From assembly GCA_016906335.1 (NCBI GenBank), contig JADEYG010000004.1:682001-746000 (forward strand): a DNA stretch of 64,000 bases. Reading direction: 5' to 3'. The notes under the pieces were generated by a model. That model ran no database searches. It was not told the DNA's origin and saw nothing but the letters and a program-made list of their open reading frames with translations. The DNA comes from Novakomyces olei. Taxonomy: Eukaryota. Of the stretch, positions 19,581 to 42,526 are shown piece by piece; the first letter of the stretch is position 1; each line of letters opens with the position of its first letter. The position numbers were made by a program, and so were the translations under genes.

Positions 19581-20212
19581 TGTAAGACGGTCCTTACAGC
19601 TACAAACGCTGGGGCCGGTCGTGTATAGTTCTAAATAGAAGTAAAGGAATAAATGGCACAAGAGAAACAGAAAGCGATTACTGTAAAGCTTACCAGGAGT
19701 AATATAATATATTACTCCCACTTTGAGATAATCAACCCGTGAAGGGCAAGAGGCCTTCACGGGCAACTATAAACTAAACTAAGTTGCGGAGGAGCGGATG
19801 CTCCTTCGCACTCTAAACTACTCTTCCCAAACTAACTTGAGCGAAGGTCGCGCAAGTTAGAGCGGGAAGCTCTCAACCTAAACTAGACTATGGAAATAAC
19901 TATGAATGTTCTCGCGCTAGCGGAGTGCGAAGGGTCGCACTCGCTAGCGTGCGAGAATGAGAACGGGAAGCGAGGTCCGTGCACATTGTGCATGGAGCCC
20001 CTCGCTCCCGTGGGCCAAGCTGGCTTAGTGCGCGTACCTACATGCGCACTAAGACAACTTCTACGTCCCAAGACCATCGCATTACGCGCCGACTGGTCTT
20101 GGGCCGCGTTGGCGAAGCTTGCGACGCGCGGACATGCCAAGTCCGACTACAGGCGTCGCCCCTCGCTTCCCAACGCGGTTGTCAGGAACTCGCCAAGGCG
20201 AGGATCATGACA
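19581..20212 (-). mobile_element. Solo LTR of the gypsy element at 21904-28862, TSD CCATT
   Basis: Inverted near-identical copy of 21904-22534. CCATT lies at 19576-19580 and 20213-20217. Confidence 0.95.
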
Positions 20213-21014
20213 CCATTCTATCACTTGCATAGTCAGCGTCGCGATAAACTGTCATGTTTAGTGCAACCGAATTGCTTTGGTACTCTAATCCCTTATCTTT
20301 CGTATCCCTTAAATAAGCCGTAATACATTGAACCAATTCTAGGCATTCATCTGTGGGTTTCTTTTGATATCTTGCTGCATGGGATACAGCGAAGGATATA
20401 TCTGGCCGAGTGCATCTGCTTATCCAAAGTAGCATGCCAACCCATTTTCGATAATTTTCATTGTTAATAGGTTTCCCATTCAATTCCACGTAATTCCTTA
20501 TGGGGATTCGTTTCTTAGGCAAATCATGACAATCGAATTCTTTGATTGTTTTTGTAATTGCTGCTTTTTGACTTATTTTTTAAGTTCCCAATATTTTGGT
20601 CATAACAAAATTCCATCCCAAGAAATTGATGAATTTCACCCAAGTCTTTGACCTTAAATGCTTTTTGTAATTTTTCCTTTGTTCGTCTCATTTCATTTAA
20701 ATCCTCCCCCATAATGATAATGTCATCAACGTAAATAAGCAAAAACAATTTACTTTGGGGTCTGTATAATATACAGTCTTCAACTTTCGATTCCATAAAA
20801 CAAGTTCCCATCAATACTGTGAAAAGCTTTTTGTACCAACATCTAGGGGCTTGCTTTAACCCGTAGAGCGATCTTTTCAGTTTGCACACTTTTCCTGTTC
20901 CATCGTCAAATCCTTCTGGTTGCTTCATATAGACACATTCTTCTAATTCGCCGTTCAAAAATGCAGTTGTAACATCCATCTGATGAATATTCCATTTTTG
21001 CATGGCTCCATAAG

Positions 21015-21417
21015 TGTGAGAAACTGAAAGGTCGCCGAAGTTCGAAGAACCTTCGGCGGAGCCTATCCTGCCTCTACAGGTACTGTTGCTTAAACAGCGG
21101 AGGTAGCCGCAGCAAAAAGGAGGAGAGTTCGTAGAACTCGTAAATTGAATTCTATTCTTGTATTAAAGAGAGTTAACCCGTGAAGAGAAATCTCTTCCCG
21201 GGTGCGGAACTATTTATAGAACTTTGGCGTGACTGTTGCGTGGCTGGCGAAGTCCAGCCACGCGGTGGCTGAATTGCCCAGTCGGGCCTAGTTCCACTTC
21301 GTGCGGAAGATACAGCTTCCGCACGGAACTATGAAAAGATCCTACGAACAACTATGAAAAGAACCGTTAAAAGTTCCAAAATGGAACTTTGCGAATGGAA
21401 CTTCGCGGTTCATTACA
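21015..21417 (-). mobile_element. Solo LTR (second gypsy-like family), TSD ATAAG
   Basis: TG...CA termini, ATAAG on both sides, and copia RT sequence resumes exactly afterwards. Orientation is inferred from the TATA/hairpin shared with the gypsy LTR. Confidence 0.88.
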
Positions 21418-22870
21418 ATAAGCCAGCAAAGTGCGAAGTAATTCTAAAGACATGGTCGGGGCGTATGTCGCTTGATAGTCTACTCCCTCACGCTGACCAA
21501 ATCTCTTCGCAACCAATCGTGCTCGATACTGTCCAACTTGCCCATTAACGTCTGCTTTAGTTTTAAAGACCCATCGATTTCCAATAGCATTAGCTCCCTT
21601 GGTGCATCCACTAATATCCATGTTACGGTGCGCTATATGATGTTAGCGGTCAAAATTACTCTCTCACGCTCTGTAGTAATAGAACCAATAAATTAACTAA
21701 TGAACAAGGCTGCCTCAAGCGAGCCTGTCGATAGATACTAACAAGACAAAGACAAATAGTTGTAGAACACAGTAAAACAGTTGAAAGCCCTGTCCAGCAG
21801 GGCCAGGGCCAAGGCCAAGGGCGCCTTATATAGTAACTAAAACAAAGAAAATTACCTATTTAGTCTACAAGGGAGATTAAGATAGGTCTTAATCTTTCAT
21901 ATGTGTCATGATCCTCGCCTTGGCGAGTCCCTGACAACCGCGTTGGGAAGCGAGGGGCGACGCCTGTAGTCGGACTTGGGATGTCCGCGCGTCGCGAGCT
22001 TCGCCAACGCGGCCCAAGACCAGTCGGCGCGTAATGCGATGGTCTTGGGACGTAGAAGTTGTCTTAGTGCGCATGTAGGTACGCGCACTAAGCCAGCTTG
22101 GCCCACGGGAGCGAGGGGCTCCATGCACAATGTGCACGGACCTCGCTTCCCGTTCTCATTCTCGCACGCTAGCGAGTGCGACCCTTCGCACTCCGCTAGC
22201 GCGAGAACATTCATAGTTATTTCCATAGTCTAGTTTAGGTTGAGAGCTTCCCGCTCTAACTTGCGCGACCTTCGCTCAAGTTAGTTTGGGAAGAGTAGTT
22301 TAGAGTGCGAAGGAGCATCCGCTCCTCCGCAACTTAGTTTAGTTTATAGTTGCCCGTGAAGGCCTCTTGCCCTTCACGGGTTGATTATCTCAAAGTGGGA
22401 GTAATATATTATATTACTCCTGGTAAGCTTTACAGTAATCGCTTTCTGCTTTCCTGGTCTTTCTTATTCCTTTACTTTATTTAAACTATACACGGCCGGC
22501 CTCCAGCGATTGTAGCTGTAAGGACCGTCTTACACTATAATCAACCCGTCCCGGTCGTTGAAGTTTGAAGTTTTTTGGAATTGTTTGTGTTTTATTTCCT
22601 TCGGATTCGAAAGAGTTTCGGACGTCGAGTCAAAGACGCGGTTCGGTACTTATTTTTACGGATTTTTACGGAAGTTAAAACGGTTAAAGCGTCGAGTGAA
22701 GGACGTGGATTCGAGTTTGAGAATTTTGAGTTATCGAGTGTTCCGGTGAAACACAGTTATTTTGAGTTATTGAGTATCGGCTTGGATAGTCGACGATTGA
22801 GTGAACAATTTACGAAGAACGGTTCTGGAAGAACGATTACGATTACGAGTTTTGCGGTACGAGGGACAAG

Positions 22871-23803
22871 ATGTCGCAAGAGGAGCTTAACACCTTTTTG
22901 CAATCCCTGCAAACTCAGATTGCCGAGTTGAAGGCAGAGAACGAGAAAGGGCGATCGCACATTGCGCATCTGACCCAGGAGATCGGTTCGCGAGCTAAGA
23001 GAGCTCCGACGAGTGACGGACCAGCGGTGATGAAGCCCGACGCGTTTCGTGGGGACCGCAAAATGGTCGAGAATTTTTTGGCGCAGCTTCGCCTTTACAT
23101 CATGTTGAAACCGCACGAGTTTCGCGACGAGCGTTCGAAGGTTCTGTTCGCAGCTTCGTATTTGCGGGACGCCGCATTTGCGTGGTTCGAACCACACCTT
23201 CGCAACAACGACTTCGCTTCGGTAGTACCTACTTTTGAAGCCTTTTGCGAAGCGTTGGCCGCGAATTTCGGCAAGGTCGACAGGGTGAGTCAGGCGCAAA
23301 GAGAGTTAGCCGCCTTGAGACAACGTGGATCAGCAGCATCTTATGCGAGCATTTTTCAAAGAATTGCTTCGTATTTGGATTTCAATGACAGTGCGCTGAC
23401 GTTTATGTATTATCAGGGGCTGAAGGATCGCATCAAGGATGAGCTTTCCAGGATGGACAGACCCCGCACTTTGAATGAAATGATTGAGATATCAGTTCGC
23501 GTGGATGGAAGAATATCCGACAGGCACATCGAGAGTGCAAGCCGCGGTTCCGTGAAATATTCCAACAACCGCCCGGCTGCAAACGCGAGTACAAGTTTTA
23601 CTCCTATGGATGTGGACGCGATTAGTTTAGAAAAGGAAGATGACAACCATCGCAAAAGCAACATCAAATGCTTTAACTGTGGACGCGTGGGTCATCGAGC
23701 AAGAGAATGCAAGCAGAAGAAGAAGACGTACAATCAGCAACACGTCGCTGCATTCACGCACGAATTTTCCGATTTGGGAAAAGCGAACGCCCAGGTCCAA
23801 TGA
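22871..23803 (+). CDS. gag: Gag (retrotransposon capsid + CCHC zinc knuckle)
   Basis: PDAFRGDR...FAASYLRDAAFAWF, LRQRGSAASY, QGLKDRIKDEL, PMDVDA and CFNCGRVGHRAREC. Confidence 0.95.
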   Translation: MSQEELNTFLQSLQTQIAELKAENEKGRSHIAHLTQEIGSRAKRAPTSDGPAVMKPDAFRGDRKMVENFLAQLRLYIMLKPHEFRDERSKVLFAASYLRDAAFAWFEPHLRNNDFASVVPTFEAFCEALAANFGKVDRVSQAQRELAALRQRGSAASYASIFQRIASYLDFNDSALTFMYYQGLKDRIKDELSRMDRPRTLNEMIEISVRVDGRISDRHIESASRGSVKYSNNRPAANASTSFTPMDVDAISLEKEDDNHRKSNIKCFNCGRVGHRARECKQKKKTYNQQHVAAFTHEFSDLGKANAQVQ

Positions 23804-26800
23804 AAAGGCCTGATCTGGGCAAACAACTATTTAGGCCACCAGAAGTTATGACAGTTTTTACGGAACCGGACAAAGCAAAGCATCTGACTGTCGTCGTGAA
23901 AGTCAAGACAGAGGATGGAGAGTTGAACGCGAGAGCCCTGATTGACTCAGGAGCTACCTCTAATTTTATCAGCGAGAAGCTCGCATCGCATGCTTTTATT
24001 AAGCTTACGGAGAAGAGCGAGACCGAGCCCATCAGAGTCGTTGATGGAAGGACAATCAAGTCAGGAGGTATTCGCTTTCACACCAGCGAGATGGATATAT
24101 CAATTGGCGAACATCGAGAAAGGATGACCTTCAATGTCATACCTCTTCGTGGATACGATGCTATCTTGGGCAAGCCATGGTTGGACAAGCATGAGCCTAC
24201 GATCGAATGGAGTCGCGCAAACGTCGAGTTTAAGTCGAACTACTGTTTGGCGAACTGTTTGAAGTGCAATACATTATCCGAATCCATGCAAGTCAGCGCA
24301 ACCGAATTTGCAAGATTGGCTCGTAATGGAGAATCAGGCATTTTATGTGTGTACGCAACGGACGAGCAAGATATCAAGCCTCGCGTTACATTGCCTGGGT
24401 TCTACGAGGGATATCGCGACCTATTTGAGAAGAAGAACGCGGACGTTTTGCCGAAACATCAACCTTGGGATCATGCGATACCCTTGGCCGAAAATGCAAA
24501 GCCGCCTTTTGGTCCGATCTACCCGCTCGCCGAACGCGAATTGCAAACGCTGAGAGATTATATCAAGGAAAACCTCGCTAAAGGTTTTATACGACCGTCG
24601 TCGTCGCCCGCGGGGGCGCCGATCTTATTTGTCAAAAAGAAAGATGGATCGCTTAGATTATGCGTTGACTATCGCGGTCTGAACGCAATCACTGTCAAAA
24701 ACAGATATGCATTACCGCTTATATCCGAACTTCTAGATCGCATTCGCCAAGCAACTATTTTTACGCGATTGGATCTTCGCGGTGCATATAATTTGGTTAG
24801 GATACGAAAAGGCGACGAATGGAAAACGGCCTTTCGTACGAGGTACGGCCACTACGAGTACCAAGTCATGCCGTTTGGGCTTACGAATGCCCCGGCTTCG
24901 TTTCAAGCACTCGCCAACGACACTTTGCGAGATTGCCTGGATCGATATGTTGTCGTTTACTTGGACGATATACTGATTTACTCAAATACAGAGGAAGAAC
25001 ACGTGGAGCACGTGCGCGGAGTATTGGAGAGACTTCGCAAGGCAAATTTATTTGTCAAATTGGAGAAATGCGAATTCCATACCGACACAACGGAGTTTCT
25101 TGGCTTCGTGATTTCAACGAAAGGTGTGTCGATGGAAAATACGAAGGTCAAATCGATTGAAACATGGCCCGAGCCAAAGAATGTTAAGGAGGTTATGTCG
25201 TTCCTGGGACTGGCGAACTATTACCGAAGATTCATCGCCAACTACAGCAAGATTACGGTACCTCTTACCCGGCTTTTAAAGAAGGATACAAAGTTCGTGT
25301 TTAGCGACGAATGCAGGGAGTCATTCAATGCGTTGAAGGATGCATTCTTAGGCGCACCTATTCTTGTGCACTTTGATCCACAAAAGCCGAGCTTCTTGGA
25401 AACGGACGCCTCAGATTTTGCGATAGGCGGGATCCTTTCGCAAAAGGATGAAAACGGCGACACGAGACCAATCGCATTTTACTCGCGCAAGATGACAAGC
25501 GCAGAGACGAACTACGACATTCACGACAAGGAGCTATTAGCTATTGTTGTATGTCTTCGGGAATGGAGGGTATACTTGGAGAGTCCCCTTCACAAAACCA
25601 CGATATACACGGATCATCGCAATCTTGTGTACTTTTGGACCGCGCGTGTCCTGAATAGACGGCAAATGCGCTGGTCGCAGTTACTTGCGTCTTACGATTT
25701 TGTGATCGTGTATCGTGCGGGAAAGTTTAACCACAAGGCTGACTCCTTATCGCGAAGAAGCGATTACGTTAGCAGCGAAGAGGAGGAAAAGCCAGAACGA
25801 ACAATGGTGCTTTTGGACAAATCGCAATTTGTGTTTGCGATTGAGGACAACAAAACGCTGGCACAGGATATTAAGAAATGCTACGAGAAGGACAGCATTT
25901 GCAAAAATATTATTGAGGAGTTAAAGAGCAAGCCTCGTGCTGCTCATTTGGAGAACTATACAATAGACAAGGAAGGTCTGTTAATGTTCTCGGGTGTGAT
26001 TTACATACCCAGAGACAACGATTTGCGATTATCAATCATGCAAGAATGTCATGATTCGCAGACTTCAGGTCACCCCGGACAGGCTAAGACGCTAGAGCTT
26101 GTGACAAGGAACTATTACTGGCCAAGGATGCGAAAGGACGTATTTAACTATGTGGAGTCATGCGACACTTGCGCACGAAGTAAATCATCGCATCATGCTC
26201 CCTACGGTCTATTACATTCGTTGCGAGTACCTACAAAGCCTTGGGAAAGCATTGCTATGGACTTCATTGTGAAGCTCCCGGTGTCAAGAGATGTCATCAC
26301 AGGCAAAGACTACGACTCAATTTGGGTTATAGTATGTCGCTTTACGAAGATAGGCATCTTTGTACCAATATGCGAGACCATGAGCGCGAAAGAACTAGCA
26401 TTGCTATACGCTCACAGAGTATTTGCTAACTTTGGACTGCCAGAAGAAATTATCTCAGATCGTGGATCAGTTTTCGTATCACATTTTACGAAGCATTTAC
26501 TCGCACATTGTGATATCAAGCAAAGGTTATCAACTGCGTACCATCCCCAGAGCGATGGACAAACGGAAAGGCTTAATCAGAGCCTCGAACAATATTTGAG
26601 AATTTACAGCAATTACCAACAAACGAATTGGGTAAACTTGCTACCTTTTGCACAGTTCGCATATAACAATACTGAGCAATCATCGACAAAAGCGACACCT
26701 AGTTATGCTTTGTATGGGTATCACCCCAAATGCCGTTTTACGATAGCAACAGCACGGCAATGCCCATCGGCGGACAATCGGATTGATTTTTTGAGGACAC

Positions 26801-27324
26801 TACATCGCCTTTTACAGATCGAGATCAAGCACGCCATTAGCGATCAAGCACGGTTTGCTAATACGCACCGTGTCGACAAGGATTTTGAAGTCGGCCAAAA
26901 AGTATGGCTAGTGAGAAAGAACATCAGTACCACTAGGCCAAGCGACAAGTTGGATTACAAGAAAATTGGACCTTTTACAATCTTGGAACGTATCGGTTTA
27001 CGTGCATACAAGTTGGATTTACCGAACACGATGAAAATACATCCTGTATTCCATGCTTCTTTATTGGAATCGTACAAGTCTACGTCTACGATTGTGCGAC
27101 AGCAGACAGCACCACCACCACCAATAATAATTGAGAATACACCAGAGTGGGAGGTAGAGAAAGTGTTGGACTCCAGGAAGCGAAGAAATAAATTGGAATA
27201 TTTTGTACATTGGAAGGGATACGATAGTGCTAATCGCACTTGGGAGCCGGCAGGCAATTTGACAAATTGCGACGATTTAGTGAAAGAATTTCACAGATTA
27301 CACCCGGCTAAGCCGAAGCTATGA
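23707..27324 (+). CDS. pol: Pol (protease-RT-RNase H-integrase-chromodomain), reached by -1 frameshift at ~23776-23782
   Basis: ALIDSGA, LCVDYRGLN, YLDD, ETDASD, HHCC/DDE integrase and the C-terminal chromodomain EWEVEKVLDSR...VHWKGY...TWEP. Confidence 0.96.
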   Translation: MQAEEEDVQSATRRCIHARIFRFGKSERPGPMKRPDLGKQLFRPPEVMTVFTEPDKAKHLTVVVKVKTEDGELNARALIDSGATSNFISEKLASHAFIKLTEKSETEPIRVVDGRTIKSGGIRFHTSEMDISIGEHRERMTFNVIPLRGYDAILGKPWLDKHEPTIEWSRANVEFKSNYCLANCLKCNTLSESMQVSATEFARLARNGESGILCVYATDEQDIKPRVTLPGFYEGYRDLFEKKNADVLPKHQPWDHAIPLAENAKPPFGPIYPLAERELQTLRDYIKENLAKGFIRPSSSPAGAPILFVKKKDGSLRLCVDYRGLNAITVKNRYALPLISELLDRIRQATIFTRLDLRGAYNLVRIRKGDEWKTAFRTRYGHYEYQVMPFGLTNAPASFQALANDTLRDCLDRYVVVYLDDILIYSNTEEEHVEHVRGVLERLRKANLFVKLEKCEFHTDTTEFLGFVISTKGVSMENTKVKSIETWPEPKNVKEVMSFLGLANYYRRFIANYSKITVPLTRLLKKDTKFVFSDECRESFNALKDAFLGAPILVHFDPQKPSFLETDASDFAIGGILSQKDENGDTRPIAFYSRKMTSAETNYDIHDKELLAIVVCLREWRVYLESPLHKTTIYTDHRNLVYFWTARVLNRRQMRWSQLLASYDFVIVYRAGKFNHKADSLSRRSDYVSSEEEEKPERTMVLLDKSQFVFAIEDNKTLAQDIKKCYEKDSICKNIIEELKSKPRAAHLENYTIDKEGLLMFSGVIYIPRDNDLRLSIMQECHDSQTSGHPGQAKTLELVTRNYYWPRMRKDVFNYVESCDTCARSKSSHHAPYGLLHSLRVPTKPWESIAMDFIVKLPVSRDVITGKDYDSIWVIVCRFTKIGIFVPICETMSAKELALLYAHRVFANFGLPEEIISDRGSVFVSHFTKHLLAHCDIKQRLSTAYHPQSDGQTERLNQSLEQYLRIYSNYQQTNWVNLLPFAQFAYNNTEQSSTKATPSYALYGYHPKCRFTIATARQCPSADNRIDFLRTLHRLLQIEIKHAISDQARFANTHRVDKDFEVGQKVWLVRKNISTTRPSDKLDYKKIGPFTILERIGLRAYKLDLPNTMKIHPVFHASLLESYKSTSTIVRQQTAPPPPIIIENTPEWEVEKVLDSRKRRNKLEYFVHWKGYDSANRTWEPAGNLTNCDDLVKEFHRLHPAKPKL

Positions 27325-27536
27325 TGTTTACGTTAATCGCGATACAGGTTACGTCATTCAACTCACGTAATCTTACGCAATCGCGAGACTCAACTCTTGA
27401 TTTTTGTTTACGACTGCGATATAATACACAATTCGCACTAGTTATTTATCGCTATTTGGAAATATTTTTTTGAAAATGTATAAAAAATTATTAAAATCAA
27501 AACAAGATGTATCGCATATTTGAAGAATTTTGGCGC

Positions 27537-27968
27537 TCATTCCAAGCCGCGCAAAGCCGAAATTTCCGCTTTCAGCTCTAGGACCTGCTGACGGAGCGAA
27601 TCGATTTCGCGATCTTTAGCGGCCAATGCTCTTTCAACAGCAACCCCGAGGCCCTCAGACGAATCGGTTGCCGCGCATTGGGCGACTTCTACAACGGGCG
27701 TCGCAACGCGAGGAACAGTGGAGGCCAACTTTGCCTTACGAGCGTTATCATACTTACGATACTCGCGCTCGACGATCGACCCGCGTATGCGCGAATTCAA
27801 CAGGGTCGGCGACATAAACATCGCGCCCTCGCACTTGGTTTTACGCGCCGCACACGCTAAGCAGCGACGGACGCGAGGGATGGCTGTCATGAAGAACTCA
27901 CAGCGCCTCCCCTGCGAAACACAATAGTCGCACGGCTTCTCGGACACAGTCACACGTGCAAGCGACAT
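27537..27968 (-). CDS. Retrotransposon-borne antisense ORF: Zn(II)2Cys6-pattern zinc cluster + C-terminal coiled coil
   Basis: ATG-initiated 143 aa with C-x2-C-x6-C-x12-C-x2-C-x6-C and the heptad-like tail IDSLRQQVLELKAEISAL. It sits in otherwise non-coding space between pol and the PPT. Confidence 0.75.
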   Translation of the reverse strand: MSLARVTVSEKPCDYCVSQGRRCEFFMTAIPRVRRCLACAARKTKCEGAMFMSPTLLNSRIRGSIVEREYRKYDNARKAKLASTVPRVATPVVEVAQCAATDSSEGLGVAVERALAAKDREIDSLRQQVLELKAEISALRGLE

Positions 27969-29429
27969 CGCGTTCAGAACTGTCTTTGCGAACGCGACTG
28001 GATACTATTTATCTTCGCGTTTTGCCTCTTTACCCCTCTGCAACAAAACGCGAACACCCCTTTTATTTTCCCATGCTATTCTATATGTTTATTTACGCGT
28101 TTACTGAGGAGAAAATATTATTGTGACACGCGGCAAATGAAATTAGCGTTTAGTTTGTTCGCCTTTCTATTTTTATGGAATATTTTATGTTTTGCGGGCG
28201 CGGGGACCTCGCCCAAGGGAGGGGGGGATACTGTCATGATCCTCGCCTTGGCGAGTCCCTGACAACCGCGTTGGGAAGCGAGGGGCGACGCCTGTAGTCG
28301 GACTTGGGATGTCCGCGCGTCGCGAGCTTCGCCAACGCGGCCCAAGACCAGTCGGCGCGTAATGCGATGGTCTTGGGACGTAGAAGTTGTCTTAGTGCGC
28401 ATGTAGGTACGCGCACTAAGCCAGCTTGGCCCACGGGAGCGAGGGGCTCCATGCACAATGTGCACGGACCTCGCTTCCCGTTCTCATTCTCGCACGCTAG
28501 CGAGTGCGACCCTTCGCACTCCGCTAGCGCGAGAACATTCATAGTTATTTCCATAGTCTAGTTTAGGTTGAGAGCTTCCCGCTCTAACTTGCGCGACCTT
28601 CGCTCAAGTTAGTTTGGGAAGAGTAGTTTAGAGTGCGAAGGAGCATCCGCTCCTCCGCAGCTTAGTTTAGTTTATAGTTGCCCGTGAAGGCCTCTTGCCC
28701 TTCACGGGTTGATTATCTCAAAGTGGGAGTAATATATTATATTACTCCTGGTAAGCTTTACAGTAATCGCTTTCTGCTTTCCTGGTCTTTCTTATTCCTT
28801 TACTTTATTTAAACTATACACGGCCGGCCTCCAGCGATTGTAGCTGTAAGGACCGTCTTACAATATGAGGCGCTAGCTAGCGCTGAAGATAGCGCTTTTA
28901 CATTCTTTAATTTGTTTTGTTTCACTTTATTTTGTGTTACGACTTCTATTTTTAATTAGTTCTATTTATAACTATTAGCTTCTATTTTTAGATAGCAACT
29001 TAGTTAGTTTAATTAGTTTAGTTTGATTAGTTTCTCGGGCTAAGCCCCACGGAGCGTCATAAGAATGGGACACTCCCCTCTTATGTTCGCTACGTGTAAT
29101 CAAAACTTGGTGTGCAATATTTGTGTGTTCAATTTCTAGGTTCCCTATTTTCCACGTATCCTCAACAGAGCCAGCGTGAGATCTGGCATATTCACCCTAT
29201 TGCACCTTTACGACCCCTTGGAAGTAAAGCCCCCATAACAATCCAAGCATTATTTTCTCTCATAGCGTCCAACTCTGTCTTCATCGCTGATTCCCAGTCT
29301 GACGCTTGTACGCTTTCTCTAGCCTGTTTTGTGTTGGTGGGCTCAATTATGCTGTCAATAGTAATATGTGCTCGATCGTATGGTCCTGGGGGTTGGCGTA
29401 CTCTTGTTGAGCGTCTTTTACCATCATTC

Positions 29430-29789
29430 TGTTATAACTGTGGAAATTACTCACTGTTATAACTTTTAGATTAATTAAATCTACCCTTAAACTATGGAAA
29501 ACCTTGTCCTTTTATAGACTTCAAGGCTCAGCTCTTATCTTCAAAATTTGCCAAGAGATAGGATCAAGACTTTCCTATCAATTAGTAATCAGATAGGATC
29601 AGAAGTAACCGATCAATTAGTAATCACCTTATCATTGATAAGATACAGATACCCGACCAGTGGCTTGATTTAATGATTAGTAATTAAATATTCCTCCAAA
29701 TCGGTTAAATTCCCTATTTGGAGTGAATTAATTTAATTTAATTATGTCATTTTTAATTTTATTTTTACTATCTACACTATGGCCTAACA
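29430..29789. mobile_element. Solo LTR (360 bp; TGTTA...TAACA), TSD CATTC
   Basis: CATTC at 29425-29429 and 29790-29794, with copia sequence continuous across the insertion. Confidence 0.87.
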
Positions 29790-30761
29790 CATTCGTCCAC
29801 ATAGTCCCAAGCTCCTGCGTTTCCAATTCGGGTAATTCAGGATTTTCACTTATTTCTGGACTCATATTTTCTAGAGTATCTTCAAAATTTTGTTCGGATG
29901 CATCAGTATCATTTTCCTCGTCGTTTTCCTCGTCGGTTTCAATTCGTATATTTTGCTGCGAGTCATATACACTTGGTTGTTGATTAACAGCAGAATTGCT
30001 ATTCCCAAGTACTGGAACAAATGGTGTGTTTTCAGAACTATTGATGGAAACAGACCCGTTTTTGACGGTTTTATAAAATTCGGTTTCTTTAAATATCACA
30101 TCTCTTGAAATAACAATTTTGTTCCTTGACATATTCCAAAGTCGGTAAGCTTTAGCATCAGACTGATAACCTACAAAGATGTTAGGTTCACTTCTAGCAT
30201 CAAGCTTTCTTATGCCTTTTTGTTTTTTCAACATATATGCAATTCATCCAAACACTCTTAAATGATCTAACAACGGAGGTTTTTCAAATATCATCTCATA
30301 TGGTGTTTTCTTAATTATTCTGCTTGGACTCGGGTTTTTCAAATAGACACAGGCATTGACCGCCTCATCCCATAGCTTATGTGGTGTTGTTCTTTGTTTC
30401 ATTGTAGATCTGACCCTGTCAAGAATTGTTCTATTCGCTCTTTCTGCTACACCATTTTGCTGCGGCGTATAGGGTGCAAATAATTCGTGAAAAATGCCAT
30501 TTTCATTTGTAAAGTCTTCGAGAGAATTATTGATATACTCTCCTCCATTGTCACTCCGAAATCTTTTGACCTTAATTCCAAATTGCGTGTAAATCATTTT
30601 GACCAAGTTTTGGAAGCAATTATTCACCTCGAATTTGTTATTAATTACGTTGACAAATGTGTACCCACTGTAATCATCAATAAAGGTGACAAAATACCGA
30701 CGACCAAGAGCTGATACTGGAAACGGCCCACAAACATCACTGTGCAATATTTCAAATTTGT

Positions 30762-32614: not shown

Positions 32615-35600
32615 TGTTGAATCTATAATTTCGAACGTGTTAATTTGAAACGTGTTGTATTCAATTTCGTTGGCCAACATAGTTCTATCTAGATCTATTT
32701 ATAGTCTTCTCAATGACAGTCACAATTACCAGGGTAAACTTCATTTTTTTTTCTAAGTAATCAGCTGCTGCACAAGCTTGATATACTTTCCTATACTCCC
32801 TCTCAAGCTTGTAATGATTCAATTCTAGAGTCCCCTTTCACCAGTTTTTGTCGCAAATGTATAAAAATCTTTTTACACAAAGGCTTTGTTAAAATATCCG
32901 CAAGCTGTTCTTTTGTAGATATATAATCAACAATTACTGTGCCGTTTTCCGTTAAATTGCGCAAAAACATATATCGTACATCAAGGTGCTTTAGTCGTCT
33001 CATTGGGCTTGTTTTATGCGCAATACAAATTGCGCTTTTGTTGTCGGAGCAAACACGAATTGGAGACTCAATTTTTAAAAGCTCCTTGGCCAGGTTGTAG
33101 AGACCTAATGTATGCACAATCGCCGTACAAGCACTTATATATTCAGCCTCGCATGTCGATAACGCAACAACTTTTTGTTTTGTTGACATCCAGTGAATTA
33201 ATGAATTACCCAGAAACAATGCCATTCCCGAAGTGGATTTCCTTTCGTCTCTATCACTTGCGTAGTCGGCATCGCAATAAACTTTCATGACTGGTTCAAC
33301 CGAATTGCTTTGATATTCCAGTCCCTTGTCTTTTGTATCCCTTAAATAAGCCGTGATACATTGAACCAGTTCGAGACATTCATCTGTAGGCTTTTCTTGA
33401 TATCTTGCTGCGTGGGATACAGCGAAGGATATATCTGGCCGAGTGCATCTGCTTATCCAAAGTAGCATGCCAATCCATTTGCGGTACTTTTCATTGTTTA
33501 TAGGTTTCCCATTCAATTCCACGTAATTCCTTATGGGAATTCGTTTTTTAGGCAAGTCGTAGCAATCGAATTCTTTAATTATTTTTGTAATTGCTGCCTT
33601 CTGACTTATTTTCAAATTTCCAATTTTCTGATCATAACAAAATTCCATCCCAAGAAATTGATGAATCTCACCCAAATCTTTGACCTTAAATGCTCTTTGT
33701 AATTTTTCCTTTGTTCGTTTCATTTCATTTAAATTCTCGCCCATAATAATAATGTCATCAACATAAATAAGCAAAAATAAATTACCTTGGGAGCTGTATA
33801 GTATACAGTCTTCGACCTTCGGTTCCATAAATCCAATTTCCATTAACACTGTAAAAAGCTTTTTGTACCAACATCTAGGGGCCTGCTTTAAACCGTAGAG
33901 CGATCTTTTCAATTTGCATACTTTTCCTGTTCCGTCGTCGAATCCTTCTGGTTGTTTCATATAAACGCATTCTTCTAATTCGCCGTTTAAGAATGCAGTT
34001 GTAACATCCATCTGATGAATATTCCATTTTTGCATTGCTCCATAAGCCAGTAAAGTGCGAAATGATTCTAAGGACATGGTCGGGGCGTATGTCGCTTGAT
34101 AATCTACTCCCTCACGCTGACCAAATCCCTTTGCAACCAATCGTGCTCGGTAACGTCCAACTTCCCCATCAACATTTGCTTTAGCTTTAAAGACCCATCG
34201 ATTTCCAATGACATTAGCTCCCTCTGGCGCGTTCACTAGTACCCAAGCGTCATTTTCTTTCATTGCGTCCAATTCTGTCTTCATCGCTAATTCCCATTCT
34301 GATGCTTGCACGCTTTCTCTAGCTTGTTTCGTATTGGTAGGCTCAATTATACTGTCAATACTAATATGCGCATGATCGTATGGTCCTGGCAAACTACGTA
34401 TTCGGGTTGAGCGTCTTTTACCATCGTCGGTCCATTTAGTTCCAAGCTCCTCCGTTTGCAATTCGGATAATTCAGAATTGTCATTAATTTTTGGACTCAT
34501 ATTTTCTAGAGTATCTTCAAAACTTTGTTCCGATGCGTCCGAATAATTTTCAATTTGCTCGTCAATTTGCTCGTCAATTTGCTCGTCATTTTGCTCGTCA
34601 TTTTGCTCGTTATTTTCCTCGTTATTTTCAATTTGTATACCCTGCTGAAATTCAGACACATTTGACTGTTGCAAATTATTGACAGTAGAAATATCATTTC
34701 CAAGTGCTGGAATAAATGTTGTATTTTCAGAGCTGTTGATGGATTTATTTTCCACAGTTTCATAAAATTCTATTTCTTTAAATATTACATCCCTTGAAAC
34801 AACAATTTTGTTCCTTGACATATTCCAAAGTCGATAAGCTTTAGCATTGGATTGATACCCTACAAAGATATGGGGTTCACTTCTAGCATCCAATTTTCTT
34901 ATATCGTTATGTTTGTTCAGGACATATGCAATGCATCCAAACACTCTCAAATGATCTAATAACGGAGGCTTTCCAAATATCATCTCATATGGTGTTTTAT
35001 TAATTATTCTGCTTGGGCTCCGATTTTTCAAATACACACAGGCATTGACCGCCTCATCCCATAGCTTTTGTGGAGTCTTCCTTTGAATCATTGTAGACCT
35101 GACCCTGTCAAGAATTGTTCTATTCGCCCTTTCTGCAACTCCATTTTGCTGCGGCGTATAAGGTGCGGATTTTTCATGAACAATGCCATTTTCGTTTGTA
35201 AACTTTTCGAAAGATTTATTAATATACTCGCCTCCATTGTCACTCCGAAATCTTTTGACCTTAATTCCAAATTGCGTGTAAATCATTTTGATCAAGTTCT
35301 GAAAACAATCATTCACTTCGAATTTATTATTGATTGTGTTGACAAAAGTGTACCCACTGTTATCATCAATAAAAGTGACAAAATAACGATGACCAAGCGC
35401 TGATACTGGAAACGGCCCACAAACATCACTGTACAATAATTCAAATTTGTCGGTTGCTCTCATTCGTCCTTCTGGGAATGGCTGGCGCGCCATTTTTCCT
35501 TCAATGCAACTTTCACAACCAACGCAACTTTCACAACCAACATTTAAGTTGCTTCTATTAACTTCGTGTTGTATTTTCCCAGCACCAAGTCCTTTGGCGA

Positions 35601-37127
35601 GTTCAACCATATATCTCTCATTTAAATGCATTAATCGTTCATGCCAAAGATTTTGTCTGTCATTTTTTGTAGCATATAGTGCAAGCATCTTTTTTCTAGG
35701 GGCATAGTCAACAATTTTTGTATCAACAGGATACAAATTATTTTCTTTATCAAAGTCTCCAAGCTTTCTTCCAGTTGTGTCATAAAGTACAGCTTTGCCT
35801 TTTGTGAAATAAACCGATATATGCTCATTATCGAGTGCGCCAAGTGAGATTAAATTGAAACCAAGCGATGGTACCCACAAGACATTTTTCAATAAAACTT
35901 GGTTATCTTAGACAAATTTAAACTTATATTTCCGTATCCCAATGCTCTTAATTTTTCTTTTCCCGCAGCAAGTACAAAATGATGTTCATCACTATTATAA
36001 CGTTTTAGATTGGTGAAGGCCAATTCATTGTCCGTCATGTGCTGCGATGCTCCACAGTCAAGAATCCATTTTGTGCTGATACTTTTGGAAATACTTGAAG
36101 ACTTTATAAATGCCACACGATAGTAATGTTCAGACAATTTATTACTATCAGTTCTTCTCAAATTTTTGTCACAGTCCGCTCTGAAATGACCTTTCTCACC
36201 ACAAATAAAACAGCTGCGATTTTTGAATCTGCAGTTAGTTTCGGTATGACCCTTTTTCTTGCAATATTTGCATATCGCAACACGAGAGGCTGCCAACGCC
36301 ATTTCCGAGCTTAAGTTATCTCCATTATCTCCTAGCATTGCTTCAAGTACAATTTCTTGTACTTCTTTGAGATTAATATTCTTCGAACGCTCCCAGATAC
36401 GTATCTCACTTTTGAGCGACTCGCAACCTTTTATCATATTTAGGTATATTTGACAAACTTCTTCAGCATGTAGGTCCTTTCGCAACTCGCGTAAACTCAG
36501 GATGAGACTGTTAAATCGTGTATTCAGTTCCGCAATTTGTCCCAAACCTTGTGTATGCAGTCCATACAGTTCGCCCGTAACTTGAACGATTAAGCGGTAT
36601 CTTCTATCCAAGAAGACGGCATCAATGCTGGAGAGCAGTGATTTCGGTGTCAATGCCTTTTGACAAACATCGTCAAGGACTGGAACCGAAATTATCTCCT
36701 TAAGAGTAAGGAGAAGCATAGCCGACGTAGATTTTTAGCCGATATCGTCGGTAAAATTCCCTTCAACTGAGGCATTTGGCATCACGTGTGCCAGTCCGTA
36801 AGTCTCAAGAATTCCGCCCAATTTCGATTTCCACTGAGGATACTCGATCAAGTTAGTCAACCTTGGAATAACCAGGAACGGCAAATCTCCATTTCCATGA
36901 GGTTTGAAAACCACTCCCGTGCTGCTCATGTTTCAGACTCTTAATCTGTTGAATCTATAATTTCGAACGTGTTAATTTGAAACGTGTTGTATTCAATTTC
37001 GTTGGCCAACATAGTTCTATCTAGATCTATTTATAGTCTTCTCAATGACAGTCACAATTACCAGGGTAAACTTCATTTTTTTTTCTAAGTAATCAGCTGC
37101 TGCACAAGCTTGATATACTTTCCTATA
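32615..37127 (-). mobile_element. Young Ty1/copia element A with identical 181-bp LTRs
   Basis: LTRs at 32615-32795 and 36947-37127, TSD CATAT, PBS 36936-36946, PPT GAGAGGGAG. Confidence 0.96.
32803..36929 (-). pseudogene. Copia gag-pol polyprotein with one in-frame TAA (36735-36737) and a 1-nt frameshift (~35908)
   Basis: Two CCHC knuckles, WILDCGASQHM, integrase, RT (YVDD) and RNase H (ADILTK), split over three ORFs. Confidence 0.88.
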
Positions 37128-40457: not shown

Positions 40458-42526
40458 ATGGTTTTGGGCAAAGGCAAAAATTCGAATTCTGCTGGGTCAG
40501 CTGATGTAAACCTGGAAAAAGGCACGGACAAAATGACCAAAGATGGACAACATCTGACGGTCTTGGGGGAGGAGGGCAAAGGAAAGCCAGGCTTGAGTCA
40601 AACTTTGGGGGGAATGCAGCCATCTTTAAATATCGCGTGTGGGCCGATATTGTATTATAATGATATCGTGGACGAAAAAGTTGACGAGAAAGTTTTGTTT
40701 TATTGGACTGGTCACGCAGTAATAGTGACAAATGATAGTAAATCTAATTATGACCCCGCGCCGCGCTTGCGTCTGACAACATCCCAAGAAAATGCTGGCG
40801 ACAGCTGGACTGTGTCTGCCAATAAATTTTACGCCGAGCGTGGTTATACCTTTTGGCGATTTGAGTTGCGTGTCCAACAGCAAGACGACAAGGATACAAG
40901 AGTCGTCTATACCCTGAATGAGTCACCGGTGCAGCTCGATTTTTTCGTTTCTGCTCATAATCAAGCATTTCGCATGGTATTCCATACCTGTAATGGCTAT
41001 TCTTTGGGAACGCCGCTTGAAGAGTTTGGAGGTATATCCGGTGGCCTTTGGTACGATGTGCTTGAGAAGCACCGCACACACAATTGGCATCTTCTGCTTG
41101 GTGGTGGGGATCAAAGTAAGCTAAAACAATACTATTTAAAATTGAATATTGACCTTATGTTAGTTTACTGCGATGCGGTCGGCCAAAAATGCGAGTCTTT
41201 CAAAGAATGGATGAGCATGAAGGACCTTTGGCATAAGCAGCGTATGGAAATGTCAGACAAGCTTCGCAATGATTTGGAAGACTTTTATCTTCACCATTAT
41301 TTATGGTGGTTTAGCCAGGGTGATTTTAGCCGCGCAATTGCCAGAATCCCAAGTATGTTGTCTCTTAGGAAGTAAGAGAATTTAACTAATTTCGTTAGGC
41401 GTCAATATCGCGGATGATCATGATTATATCGATGGTTTTGGTTCTTACAATGACCACTTTATGAAAAGCCCAGTTTTTAGCGGGCTTGGCATGATAGGCT
41501 TCAAATACTACCTGTTGTTCCAGCAGGGATGCGCTGTTCACGAACCGGTTTTTTCCTCGGTTGTCCTTGGTCCTAAACCAGGACCTTATATCAAGGAAAA
41601 ATCGCGCAATGTAATCAGTAGTTTGGGAGATGGCGCCATGCTTTTTGCTTTTGATAATCGAACCGAGCGTACTCGTTATCAAGTTAATTATGAAGAGACA
41701 TACGACATCTTGATTTCAGAGCTGAGAGATCGAATGGCTGCACAGCCTTCCCCTGTAGAGCACCTTATTGTTCTGTTGGCTATCCCTATCGCTTATCCTC
41801 GTCTTGTGTGGCTGGAGGAGCTTTTGACGAGCCGAATAATGGACCCTATCAAGCTTATCGGTAAAACAGGAGCGCTTGGACACATGCTTAACGATTTTGA
41901 TTTTGGTGTTGAAGTTCTTGATGACCTTGATGACCATTGGACATCGAAACATCATAAGAAAGAGCGCAATCGTTTCCTTCTTCTTTTGCAGGAGTTTTCA
42001 AGGGCAATGGGGGTGCGTATTACTATTATTAGTGGCGACGTGCATTTGGCAGCAGTTAGCAGGTTTGCCTCCAATAGCAAGCAAGACTTGGCCCCCTACG
42101 AGGATCCTCGTTATATTGTGAATGTAAGTATCGAAACTATGCCTTGCTTTAGCAGATCTAATTCAATAGCTCGTATCGTCTGCAATTGTCAATGCTCCAC
42201 CTCCAAGTGCGGTTACGTCGTTGTTGAGCAAGCGAAACAAAGTGCATCACCTTGACTCTTATACGGACGAGACTTTGATCCCTTTGTTCGAAACGGATGT
42301 TAACGATGATAGTATGCCAAACAAAGGTTTGCTGCAGGCTAGAAGAAACTGGGCAGCCATTGCAATGCGCTCAACTGCTCATGATTCTCAAGAGAGTGGA
42401 GAAGCGAAGGCTTTGGAACTTATACTTAATGTTGAGATTGACCAGCGTGATCCCGGTAAAGGTACGAGACAGTATCCTTACACTGTTCCCGCTCTCACGT
42501 TGAACAAACTTGGTAAAGGAAGCTGA
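40458..42526 (+). CDS. PhoD-like metallophosphatase family protein, multi-exon
   Basis: FHTCNGYS, LLGGGDQ-VYCD, DDHDYIDGFGSY, FDNRTER, LDDLDDHW and ISGDVHLAA. GT-AG introns link the ORF pieces. Confidence 0.85.

Follow-up and report, generated by a model that had tools for sequence, protein, structure and literature searches.

Does the retrotransposon at positions 21904-28862 of the DNA considered here carry a regulatory gene of its own, written on the strand opposite to gag and pol? The question is raised by a stretch of 64,000 nucleotides from the fungus Novakomyces olei (assembly GCA_016906335.1, contig JADEYG010000004.1, positions 682,001 to 746,000 of the forward strand), which is called the window below and whose own numbering is used throughout. 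In it, a complete Ty3/gypsy chromovirus carries an antisense open reading frame (ORF) at 27537-27968 on the minus strand, which begins with ATG, encodes 143 amino acids followed by a stop codon, and lies between the stop codon of pol and the polypurine tract ahead of the 3′ long terminal repeat (LTR). The ORF has the appearance of a genuine accessory gene, one whose product would combine a Zn2Cys6-like cluster with a coiled coil. The reading preferred here, to which we give a probability of about 0.45, is that this accessory gene of the chromovirus encodes a small Zn2Cys6-like dimeric DNA-binding protein, most likely acting on the element's own LTR.

First of all, the ORF has the layout that such a protein would need. 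Its six cysteines (C13, C16, C23, C36, C39 and C46) form the motif C-x2-C-x6-C-x12-C-x2-C-x6-C, read as CDYC-x6-C-x12-CLAC-x6-C at residues 13-46 (27831-27932, minus strand), in agreement with the spacing rule of Zn2Cys6 clusters, C-x2-C-x6-C-x5-12-C-x2-C-x6-8-C. Eight basic residues follow within residues 57-80, and the C-terminus, residues 104-142 (27543-27659, minus strand), is a heptad helix presumed to be a dimerisation coiled coil, in which four heptads can be read with L115/I122/V129/I136 and L125/L132/L139 at the a and d positions. The half-sites read CVSQGRRC in the first and CAARKTKC in the second. That is to say, the basic RKxKC loop stands in the second half-site, and Pfam accordingly maps the two halves in swapped order, with residues 36-48 placed in the first half of the Zn_clus profile (positions 3-15). 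The original prediction, made from the letters alone, had described the ATG-started antisense frame with zinc-cluster cysteine spacing, the basic stretch, the leucine heptad tail and the displaced basic loop, and all of these were found at the places just given. In Gal4, the basic residues that contact CGG lie in the first half-site. Compared with proteins of the Gal4/Put3/Ppr1 type (PF00172), the window ORF is thus alike in having six cysteines of canonical spacing followed by a coiled coil, but it differs in the position of the basic xxRKxKC loop, in the small size of its product (143 amino acids, without a middle homology region) and in being encoded by a retrotransposon.

The surroundings of the ORF also agree with what had been predicted, namely an AT-rich spacer towards pol and some 260 bp of free space facing the 3′ LTR. 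The ORF is a GC island (57.2% GC, GC content of third codon positions 0.62) between flanks of 31.6% GC on the pol side and 43.7% on the LTR side. The pol-side flank is a spacer of 212 bp at 27325-27536, on which the ends of pol and of the antisense ORF converge, and the distance from the ATG to the 3′ LTR is 263 bp (27969-28231). The upstream region at 27969-28214, read on the minus strand, may hold a promoter and a 5′ untranslated region: a TATA-like TAAAAATA stands at −207 and ATAAATA at −44 relative to the ATG on this strand, and AATAAT occurs on the same strand 45 nt past the stop of the ORF, within the AT-rich spacer. No upstream exon and no decayed acidic tail were seen in any frame around the ORF.

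Is a gene of this kind found in other elements? The integrase-chromodomain part of pol was used as the query of a metagenome scan, which confirmed 553 relatives and returned 78 loci (37-51% identity, 395 kb). The strict cysteine motif occurs six times in the 78 loci (L002, L060, L068, L070, L072 and L074), in all six cases opposite to the pol strand and 266-371 bp beyond the pol match, and a hidden Markov model (HMM) of these six ORFs adds L001 at 2e-20, which brings the carriers to 7 of 78. When the motif was relaxed, a scan of the 78 loci and the window gave nothing beyond the seven carriers and the window ORF except one Copia gag that contains two CCHC knuckles. The seven carrier ORFs encode 166-201 amino acids and have in common an MP-type start, a basic N-terminus, the motif C-x2-C-x6-9-C-x8-C-x2-C-x6-9-C, a coiled coil with RLxKQ ... 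MLRRGL-SLDELD, and an acidic tail. About 55 nt upstream of the ATG of the L070 ORF begins a terminal direct repeat, taken as the 3′ LTR, a position that would fit transcription from the antisense face of the LTR. As for the room available, at least 700 bp follow the pol match in 45 of the 78 loci, a group to which five of the seven carriers belong, and the remaining two carriers have 629 and 679 bp; in many non-carriers, pol is followed by a short gap and then directly by gag, which leaves no room for an accessory gene.

Several side observations were made on these loci. A variant antisense ORF in the same slot lies at L067:6144-6971 (minus strand), with the pattern C-x2-C-x12-C ... C-x2-C-x6-C and a very acidic tail; another, at L076:1193-1624 (minus strand), has three cysteines, one C-x2-C-x7-C half-site, a coiled coil and an acidic tail. 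Neither of the two variant ORFs has a Pfam match at E up to 0.01. In L004, L007, L008, L010, L015 and L019, a sense gag ORF follows pol within a few hundred bases, and these are elements assembled in tandem or as circles.

The carriers are not scattered over the integrase phylogeny. With the best tblastn segment of at least 380 amino acids taken per locus, 64 rows were available and 15 loci, L076 included, were dropped. A quick IQ-TREE of the 64 rows brought the window element, the seven carriers and L067 together as a set of nine rows, with a value of 97 in the Shimodaira-Hasegawa-like approximate likelihood ratio test (SH-aLRT), the other 55 rows falling outside. A careful tree was then built from 28 hand-chosen rows, each standing for one tight cluster, with near-duplicates and the three longest branches (L003, L046 and L064) left out; in it, the window element and seven rows with an antisense cysteine-rich ORF were separated from 20 rows without one by a split of 99/97, and 15 of these 20 rows have at least 700 bp downstream of pol. 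The set was also recovered in three of four FastTree runs, with support of 0.98-0.996. The window element thus stands in the integrase lineage of the carriers. Since the tree is unrooted, a single gain of the gene and a single loss fit it equally.

These results bear directly on the alternative in which GC-rich filler happens to leave a frame open and the cysteine pattern of the ORF is a coincidence. Length alone is weak evidence against chance, as it is only mildly unusual: when 27325-28231 was simulated 2000 times, an ATG-started ORF of at least 143 amino acids appeared 35 times, and the GC-rich core of 432 nt was open in 244 of 2000 cases. Such openness in 12% of simulations, together with the fact that the ORF is an orphan by sequence, speaks for chance. 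What speaks against it is the motif, whose strict spacing is found a single time when all six frames of the 64-kb window are read and never in 200 windows simulated with an order-2 Markov model; it is because the motif, unlike the ORF length, is absent from the simulations that the observation is taken as non-random. In addition, an ORF of this kind, in the same slot and on the same strand, is present in all eight rows on the window side of the 99/97 split, and none of the 20 rows opposite has one. Chance is already unlikely on these grounds, and we hold it to be very improbable.

If the ORF is a gene, it has to be asked whether it is the same gene as that of the related elements. It shares their placement, being antisense and lying between pol and the 3′ LTR of a chromovirus; all six of its cysteines fall on invariant columns of the related antisense ORFs; its end, ...ALRGLE, aligns with the RRGL position of the family; and BLASTP against the L060 protein gives E 3e-4, a value from this single pair. 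The differences are plain as well, in that the window ORF has a 12-residue spacer between the half-sites versus 8-9 in the family, with a long linker.

The family itself was extended by a search with a profile, A1, which includes the window ORF; it returned 27 family proteins of 101-226 amino acids, mostly from metagenomes. The named members are SS1G_06438 of Sclerotinia sclerotiorum, two proteins of Hirsutella rhossiliensis and one of Hymenoscyphus albidus, and the UniRef name of SS1G_06438 begins 'Zn(2)-C6 fungal-ty'. Compared with the sequences of the Protein Data Bank (PDB), A1 matched PUT3 (E 0.0041 and 0.011), LEU3, HAP1, CYP1, GAL4, AlcR and LAC9; Zn2Cys6 proteins make up 12 of the 60 PDB matches listed, the others being coiled coils. 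In the alignment A4, no Pfam family is matched as often as Zn_clus, with 9 of 27 members at E up to 0.1 and a best value of 2.1e-4; the next family reaches 2 of 27, and in every member whose Pfam score was inspected Zn_clus stays below 21 bits. DUF3716 is not among the 25 families listed of the 34 Pfam families for A4.

Structure prediction gave a similar picture. From the single sequence, AlphaFold reached a mean predicted local distance difference test (pLDDT) value of 56.8 and was confident only at the C-terminal helix; with the A4 alignment, the value rose to 78.9 overall, with 77-92 over the cluster and more than 90 at helix 104-139, the C-terminal helix exceeding 90 in both models. The A4 model has helices at residues 14-19 and 37-42; solved Zn2Cys6 domains have two short helices, one after each C-x2-C. 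Among the 17 Foldseek matches listed for this model, 16 are Zn2Cys6 proteins, namely 15 named domains (Pho7, Leu3, Ppr1, Gal4, Hap1, AlcR and Put3) and a CBF3 chain, presumably Cep3; the remaining one is a coiled coil. The superposition on Ppr1 gave 1.6 Å over 34 residues with Z 2.4, and prediction of a homodimer from two copies gave no verdict (score 0.32 versus 0.16 for the control). Taken as model-based evidence, the profile and fold comparisons weakly point to Gal4/Put3-type domains.

The results that weigh against the preferred reading are gathered here. With regard to homology, the HMM of six sequences misses the window ORF at E up to 10; the A3 HMM of 26 sequences gives it 4.8 bits, a score reached by 258 of 1000 shuffles with the cysteines fixed and by 12 of 1000 full shuffles; and hhalign of the ORF against the family reaches a probability of only 28.6% (P 6e-4). 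The acidic tail, the MLRRGL-SLDELD segment and the C-terminal FW...GGT motif of the family are all missing from it. When L067 is removed, FastTree shifts the window element beside L012, L015 and L019, which lack the ORF, with support of 0.80. Searches with the ORF alone were negative throughout: there is no second copy within the 64-kb window; a word-indexed protein search among near lengths gave 37 candidates, none at E up to 0.01; phmmer against 1.84 billion representative proteins found no true relative; and a metagenome scan with the ORF gave 433 pattern matches, of which none was confirmed. As regards protein type, Pfam Zn_clus scores the ORF at 15.5 bits (E 0.019) with only residues 36-48 aligned, under the gathering cut-off of 21 bits. 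All fold matches are weak (best Foldseek E 0.27, all Z below 4, nothing at E up to 0.001 with the A4 model), and AlphaFold may simply recall a memorised cysteine pattern. Finally, pairs of the CGG-Nx-CCG type are not enriched in the LTR, with 6 observed versus 13.6 expected.

Some further searches were likewise without result. The sole phmmer match, P0001, was judged spurious, being a tandem-repeat protein of 1198 amino acids with zero aligned cysteines. A PDB sequence search with the single ORF gave one irrelevant match at E 1.4, the top score in the ESM Atlas was 0.77, under the level for more than a lead, and no viral contigs were found with the integrase part of pol.

How do these points change the reading? 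Since shuffles with fixed cysteines match its score, sequence does not establish that the window ORF is homologous to the family; the case is made by position, strand, architecture and the pol tree, and on those four grounds homology is probable. The original prediction had proposed a search for other copies and for related elements; some of the latter carry ORFs in the same slot, and none of the former was found within the window. Its dimeric DNA-binding factor survives in so far as the ORF looks like an accessory gene, with a Zn2Cys6-like product that includes a coiled coil and with genes of the same slot in relatives, and fails at the Zn_clus profile, where the ORF scores under the gathering level. 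The structural check that it had proposed was likewise divided: zinc-cluster domains dominate the Foldseek matches, each match being weak.

The empty protein searches also bear on where the gene came from. It could have been captured recently from the host as the DNA-binding end of a Zn2Cys6 transcription factor; fungal genomes contain many Zn2Cys6 genes, and the GC content of the ORF is above that of gag-pol and of the host genes in the window, both of which can be counted in favour. Among the 1.84 billion representatives searched by phmmer, however, there is no host-like relative, and the slot is filled by the same kind of gene in related elements, which speaks for old carriage rather than recent capture. 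A recent capture is therefore regarded as most improbable.

Whether the protein matters to the element can be approached through two close relatives, L072 and L074, whose gag-pol regions are 99.2% identical over 5.4 kb and whose LTR sides are 99.9% identical. Their antisense ORFs share only 58% of residues, with dN 0.38 and dS 1.35 (nonsynonymous and synonymous divergence, the latter near saturation), and the resulting dN/dS of 0.28, which comes from this single pair and not from the window ORF, points to constraint on the antisense gene. The stretches compared for the cassette are L072:5300-6209 and L074:5412-6340. From the contrast between the ORFs and the rest of the two elements, the antisense gene seems to be exchanged as a cassette by recombination.

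Constraint on the protein has to be set against the idea that the functional product is the antisense RNA itself, acting in copy-number control or silencing, and that the window ORF is decaying or incidental. In keeping with this, the window copy is short and without the acidic tail, its similarity to the family does not go beyond the cysteines, its length is only mildly unusual, and the protein and metagenome searches returned no relative of it. On the other hand, the six cysteines, the ATG and the heptad helix have all been kept, and the element around them shows a single difference between its LTRs in 631 positions, the complete motif was seen in 0 of 200 simulations, and the relatives keep such proteins with the dN/dS just given. 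An RNA-only function thus appears rather unlikely. In three raw RNA runs sharing the species label, 0 reads fell over 26000-28870, sense and antisense alike, a result that does not count as a test of expression.

Returning to the preferred reading, a protein acting on the LTR, the following scheme is proposed. The protein would consist of a Zn2Cys6-like cluster at residues 13-46, a basic helix at about residues 54-84 and a four-heptad coiled coil at residues 104-142. The promoter for the minus strand would lie either within the 263-bp spacer or on the antisense face of the 3′ LTR, and transcription would stop in the AT-rich spacer behind pol. The protein might then dimerise through its coiled coil, like Gal4 and Put3, and bind paired DNA sites; its most likely targets would be those of the element's own LTR, by which sense transcription would be tuned. 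Because the relatives have an acidic tail and the window copy has none, we lean to repression rather than activation, and a repressing or occluding role of the latency type would be favoured for the short form. That the gene is expressed, that its product binds zinc and DNA and forms a dimer, and which target it regulates in which direction are all inferred here.

Which sites in the LTR could serve such a protein? One CGG-N11-CCG (28299) and one CGG-N10-CCG (28465) are present, within chance. More conspicuous are palindromes, perfect hairpins with arms of 8-11 nt, at 28392-28421, 28502-28521, 28681-28708 and 28726-28748, which recur at the same places in the 5′ LTR; 10 seed matches were counted versus 0.16 expected, a level reached in 0 of 300 simulations. 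These palindromes could be protein sites or RNA hairpins.

In another alternative, the ORF encodes a real protein that is not an LTR transcription factor and instead guides integration together with the chromodomain integrase, binds the RNA or cDNA of the element, or counters host silencing. Such a role would suit a kind of gene that is kept across a branch of elements whose LTR, in the window copy, shows no excess of CGG pairs, and the divergence of the L072/L074 cassette (58% versus 99.2% for gag-pol) fits an interface with a variable host partner, whether in conflict or adapting. The architecture, a cluster followed by a coiled coil, is nevertheless that of dimeric DNA binders of the Gal4/Put3 type, and nothing in the analysis points to RNA binding or to contact with the integrase. 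We consider this alternative possible though doubtful, and keep to the LTR-directed DNA-binding protein as the reading to work with.

The element that carries the ORF is well preserved. Its 5′ LTR (21904-22534, plus strand) and 3′ LTR (28232-28862, plus strand) are each 631 bp long, begin with TG and end with CA, and differ from one another at a single base, LTR position 429; the four palindromes described above lie inside the 3′ copy. A target-site duplication of five identical bases, ATATG, is found at 21899-21903 and again at 28863-28867. The gag gene (22871-23803, plus strand) encodes a Ty3 capsid and a CCHC knuckle (Pfam Ty3_capsid 1.1e-15, Retrotrans_gag 1.1e-12, zf-CCHC 1.2e-7). It is overlapped in the −1 frame by pol (23707-27324, plus strand), which encodes protease, reverse transcriptase, RNase H, integrase, an SH3 domain and a chromodomain (RVT_1 3.4e-37, RT_RNaseH 6.7e-37, Integrase_H2C2 1.5e-23, Chromo 4.5e-16). 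The polypurine tract AAGGGAGGGGGGGA stands at 28215-28228 on the plus strand, 3 bases ahead of the 3′ LTR. Since the LTRs differ only once in 631 bp, a target duplication is present and both gag and pol are open, the copy in which the ORF sits is a recently active one. Directly after the 5′ LTR, the segment 22535-22563 (CTATAATCAACCCGTCCCGG...) shows by eye no obvious tRNA-type TGG start of a primer-binding site.

The same family has left a further trace nearby, an inverted solo LTR at 19581-20212 (minus strand) that is about 97.5% identical to the LTRs of the element and has its own 5-bp duplication, CCATT, on both flanks; the gypsy family was therefore inserted at least twice in the window. 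Fragments of the Copia type (RVT_2, integrase SH3) flank the gypsy element at 20205-21621 and 29728-30234 on the minus strand, an arrangement suggestive of an older Copia element within which both the gypsy element and the solo LTR lie nested. In a second Copia element, at 32803-36719 (minus strand), the frames of gag and pol are long and open (RVT_2 2e-72, rve, CCHC). Among the other genes of the window are Vps54, MCM and ABC1, as well as a kinase with an HR1-C2-C1-kinase layout, typical of fungal Pkc1; by this context, too, the host is placed among the fungi. Two adjacent ORFs at 40458-42255 match successive parts of a PhoD-like phosphatase profile and probably belong to a single gene that is interrupted by an intron or a frame break.

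How new is such a gene? The brtn gene of Boty was reportedly treated by Zhao et al. in 2011 (Virology 417:248). As described in excerpts of later papers, brtn stands antisense in the slot from pol to the 3′ LTR of Boty-like elements of Botrytis and Sclerotinia (PMC7264820, PMC8365987, PMC4227169). The statement that chromoviruses normally encode only Gag and Pol, on which the original prediction had leaned, overlooks this gene, to judge from the excerpts of PMC7264820 and PMC8365987. The likeness extends, as far as those excerpts go, to the antisense orientation, to the slot between pol and the 3′ LTR and to the host element, a fungal chromovirus with gag, reverse transcriptase, integrase and chromodomain. 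The A3 family likewise includes a Sclerotinia sclerotiorum protein, the SS1G_06438 mentioned above. That this protein is brtn is our guess. The A3 family is probably brtn-like, and the window ORF is a short, divergent form of an already known type of antisense gene. With brtn as a precedent, the finding is less new than the first reading held. Our literature search, which did not cover the original description of brtn, found nothing that ties a zinc-cluster protein to an antisense ORF of a retrotransposon.

Antisense genes in this slot are also found outside the fungi. According to portions of PMC7264820 and PMC11963269, aORF-3R of plant Ty3/gypsy elements occurs in maize Grande, rice RIRE2 and Silene Retand (TRP28 domain); it is kept within families and is suspected, so far without proof, of acting as a DNA-binding regulator. 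In slot and orientation these genes are like the window ORF, but they encode unrelated proteins (TRP28 and others) and belong to non-chromoviral elements with far longer regions between pol and LTR. A more distant counterpart is HBZ of human T-lymphotropic virus type 1 (HTLV-1), an antisense basic leucine zipper (bZIP) factor transcribed from the 3′ LTR. The likeness is one of analogy only, consisting in an antisense gene at the 3′ end for a small dimerising factor of DNA-binding type; HBZ differs in its bZIP fold, its host and its origin in a true retrovirus. Antisense retroviral genes are discussed in a part of PMC11963269. From the side of the host, the accessible part of a preprint (10.1101/2025.04.25.647736) proposes that Ty5 LTRs were regulated by zinc-cluster factors of the host.

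Put together, these comparisons invite a broader proposal, in which a branch of fungal chromoviruses would be 'complex' retroelements, each with an antisense Gal4-like dimeric factor expressed from the 3′ LTR side as a counterpart of HBZ; the gene would be a fast-evolving, swapped cassette with long, acidic-tailed and short, tail-less forms, and the short form would be a repressor or latency switch of its own LTR. This proposal is speculative, and we doubt it more than we believe it.

For antisense genes between pol and LTR, such as brtn and those of Grande, RIRE2 and Retand, the role is still open in the excerpts of PMC7264820 and PMC11963269. The window copy offers a young, intact element with a short ORF, the function of which is directly testable. 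LTR retrotransposons are usually viewed as gag-pol machines that rely on the transcription factors of their host. An element with a sequence-specific DNA-binding factor of its own, if this is true, could set its own expression, latency or targeting, and such an element-encoded factor would be a ready source of new regulators for the host.

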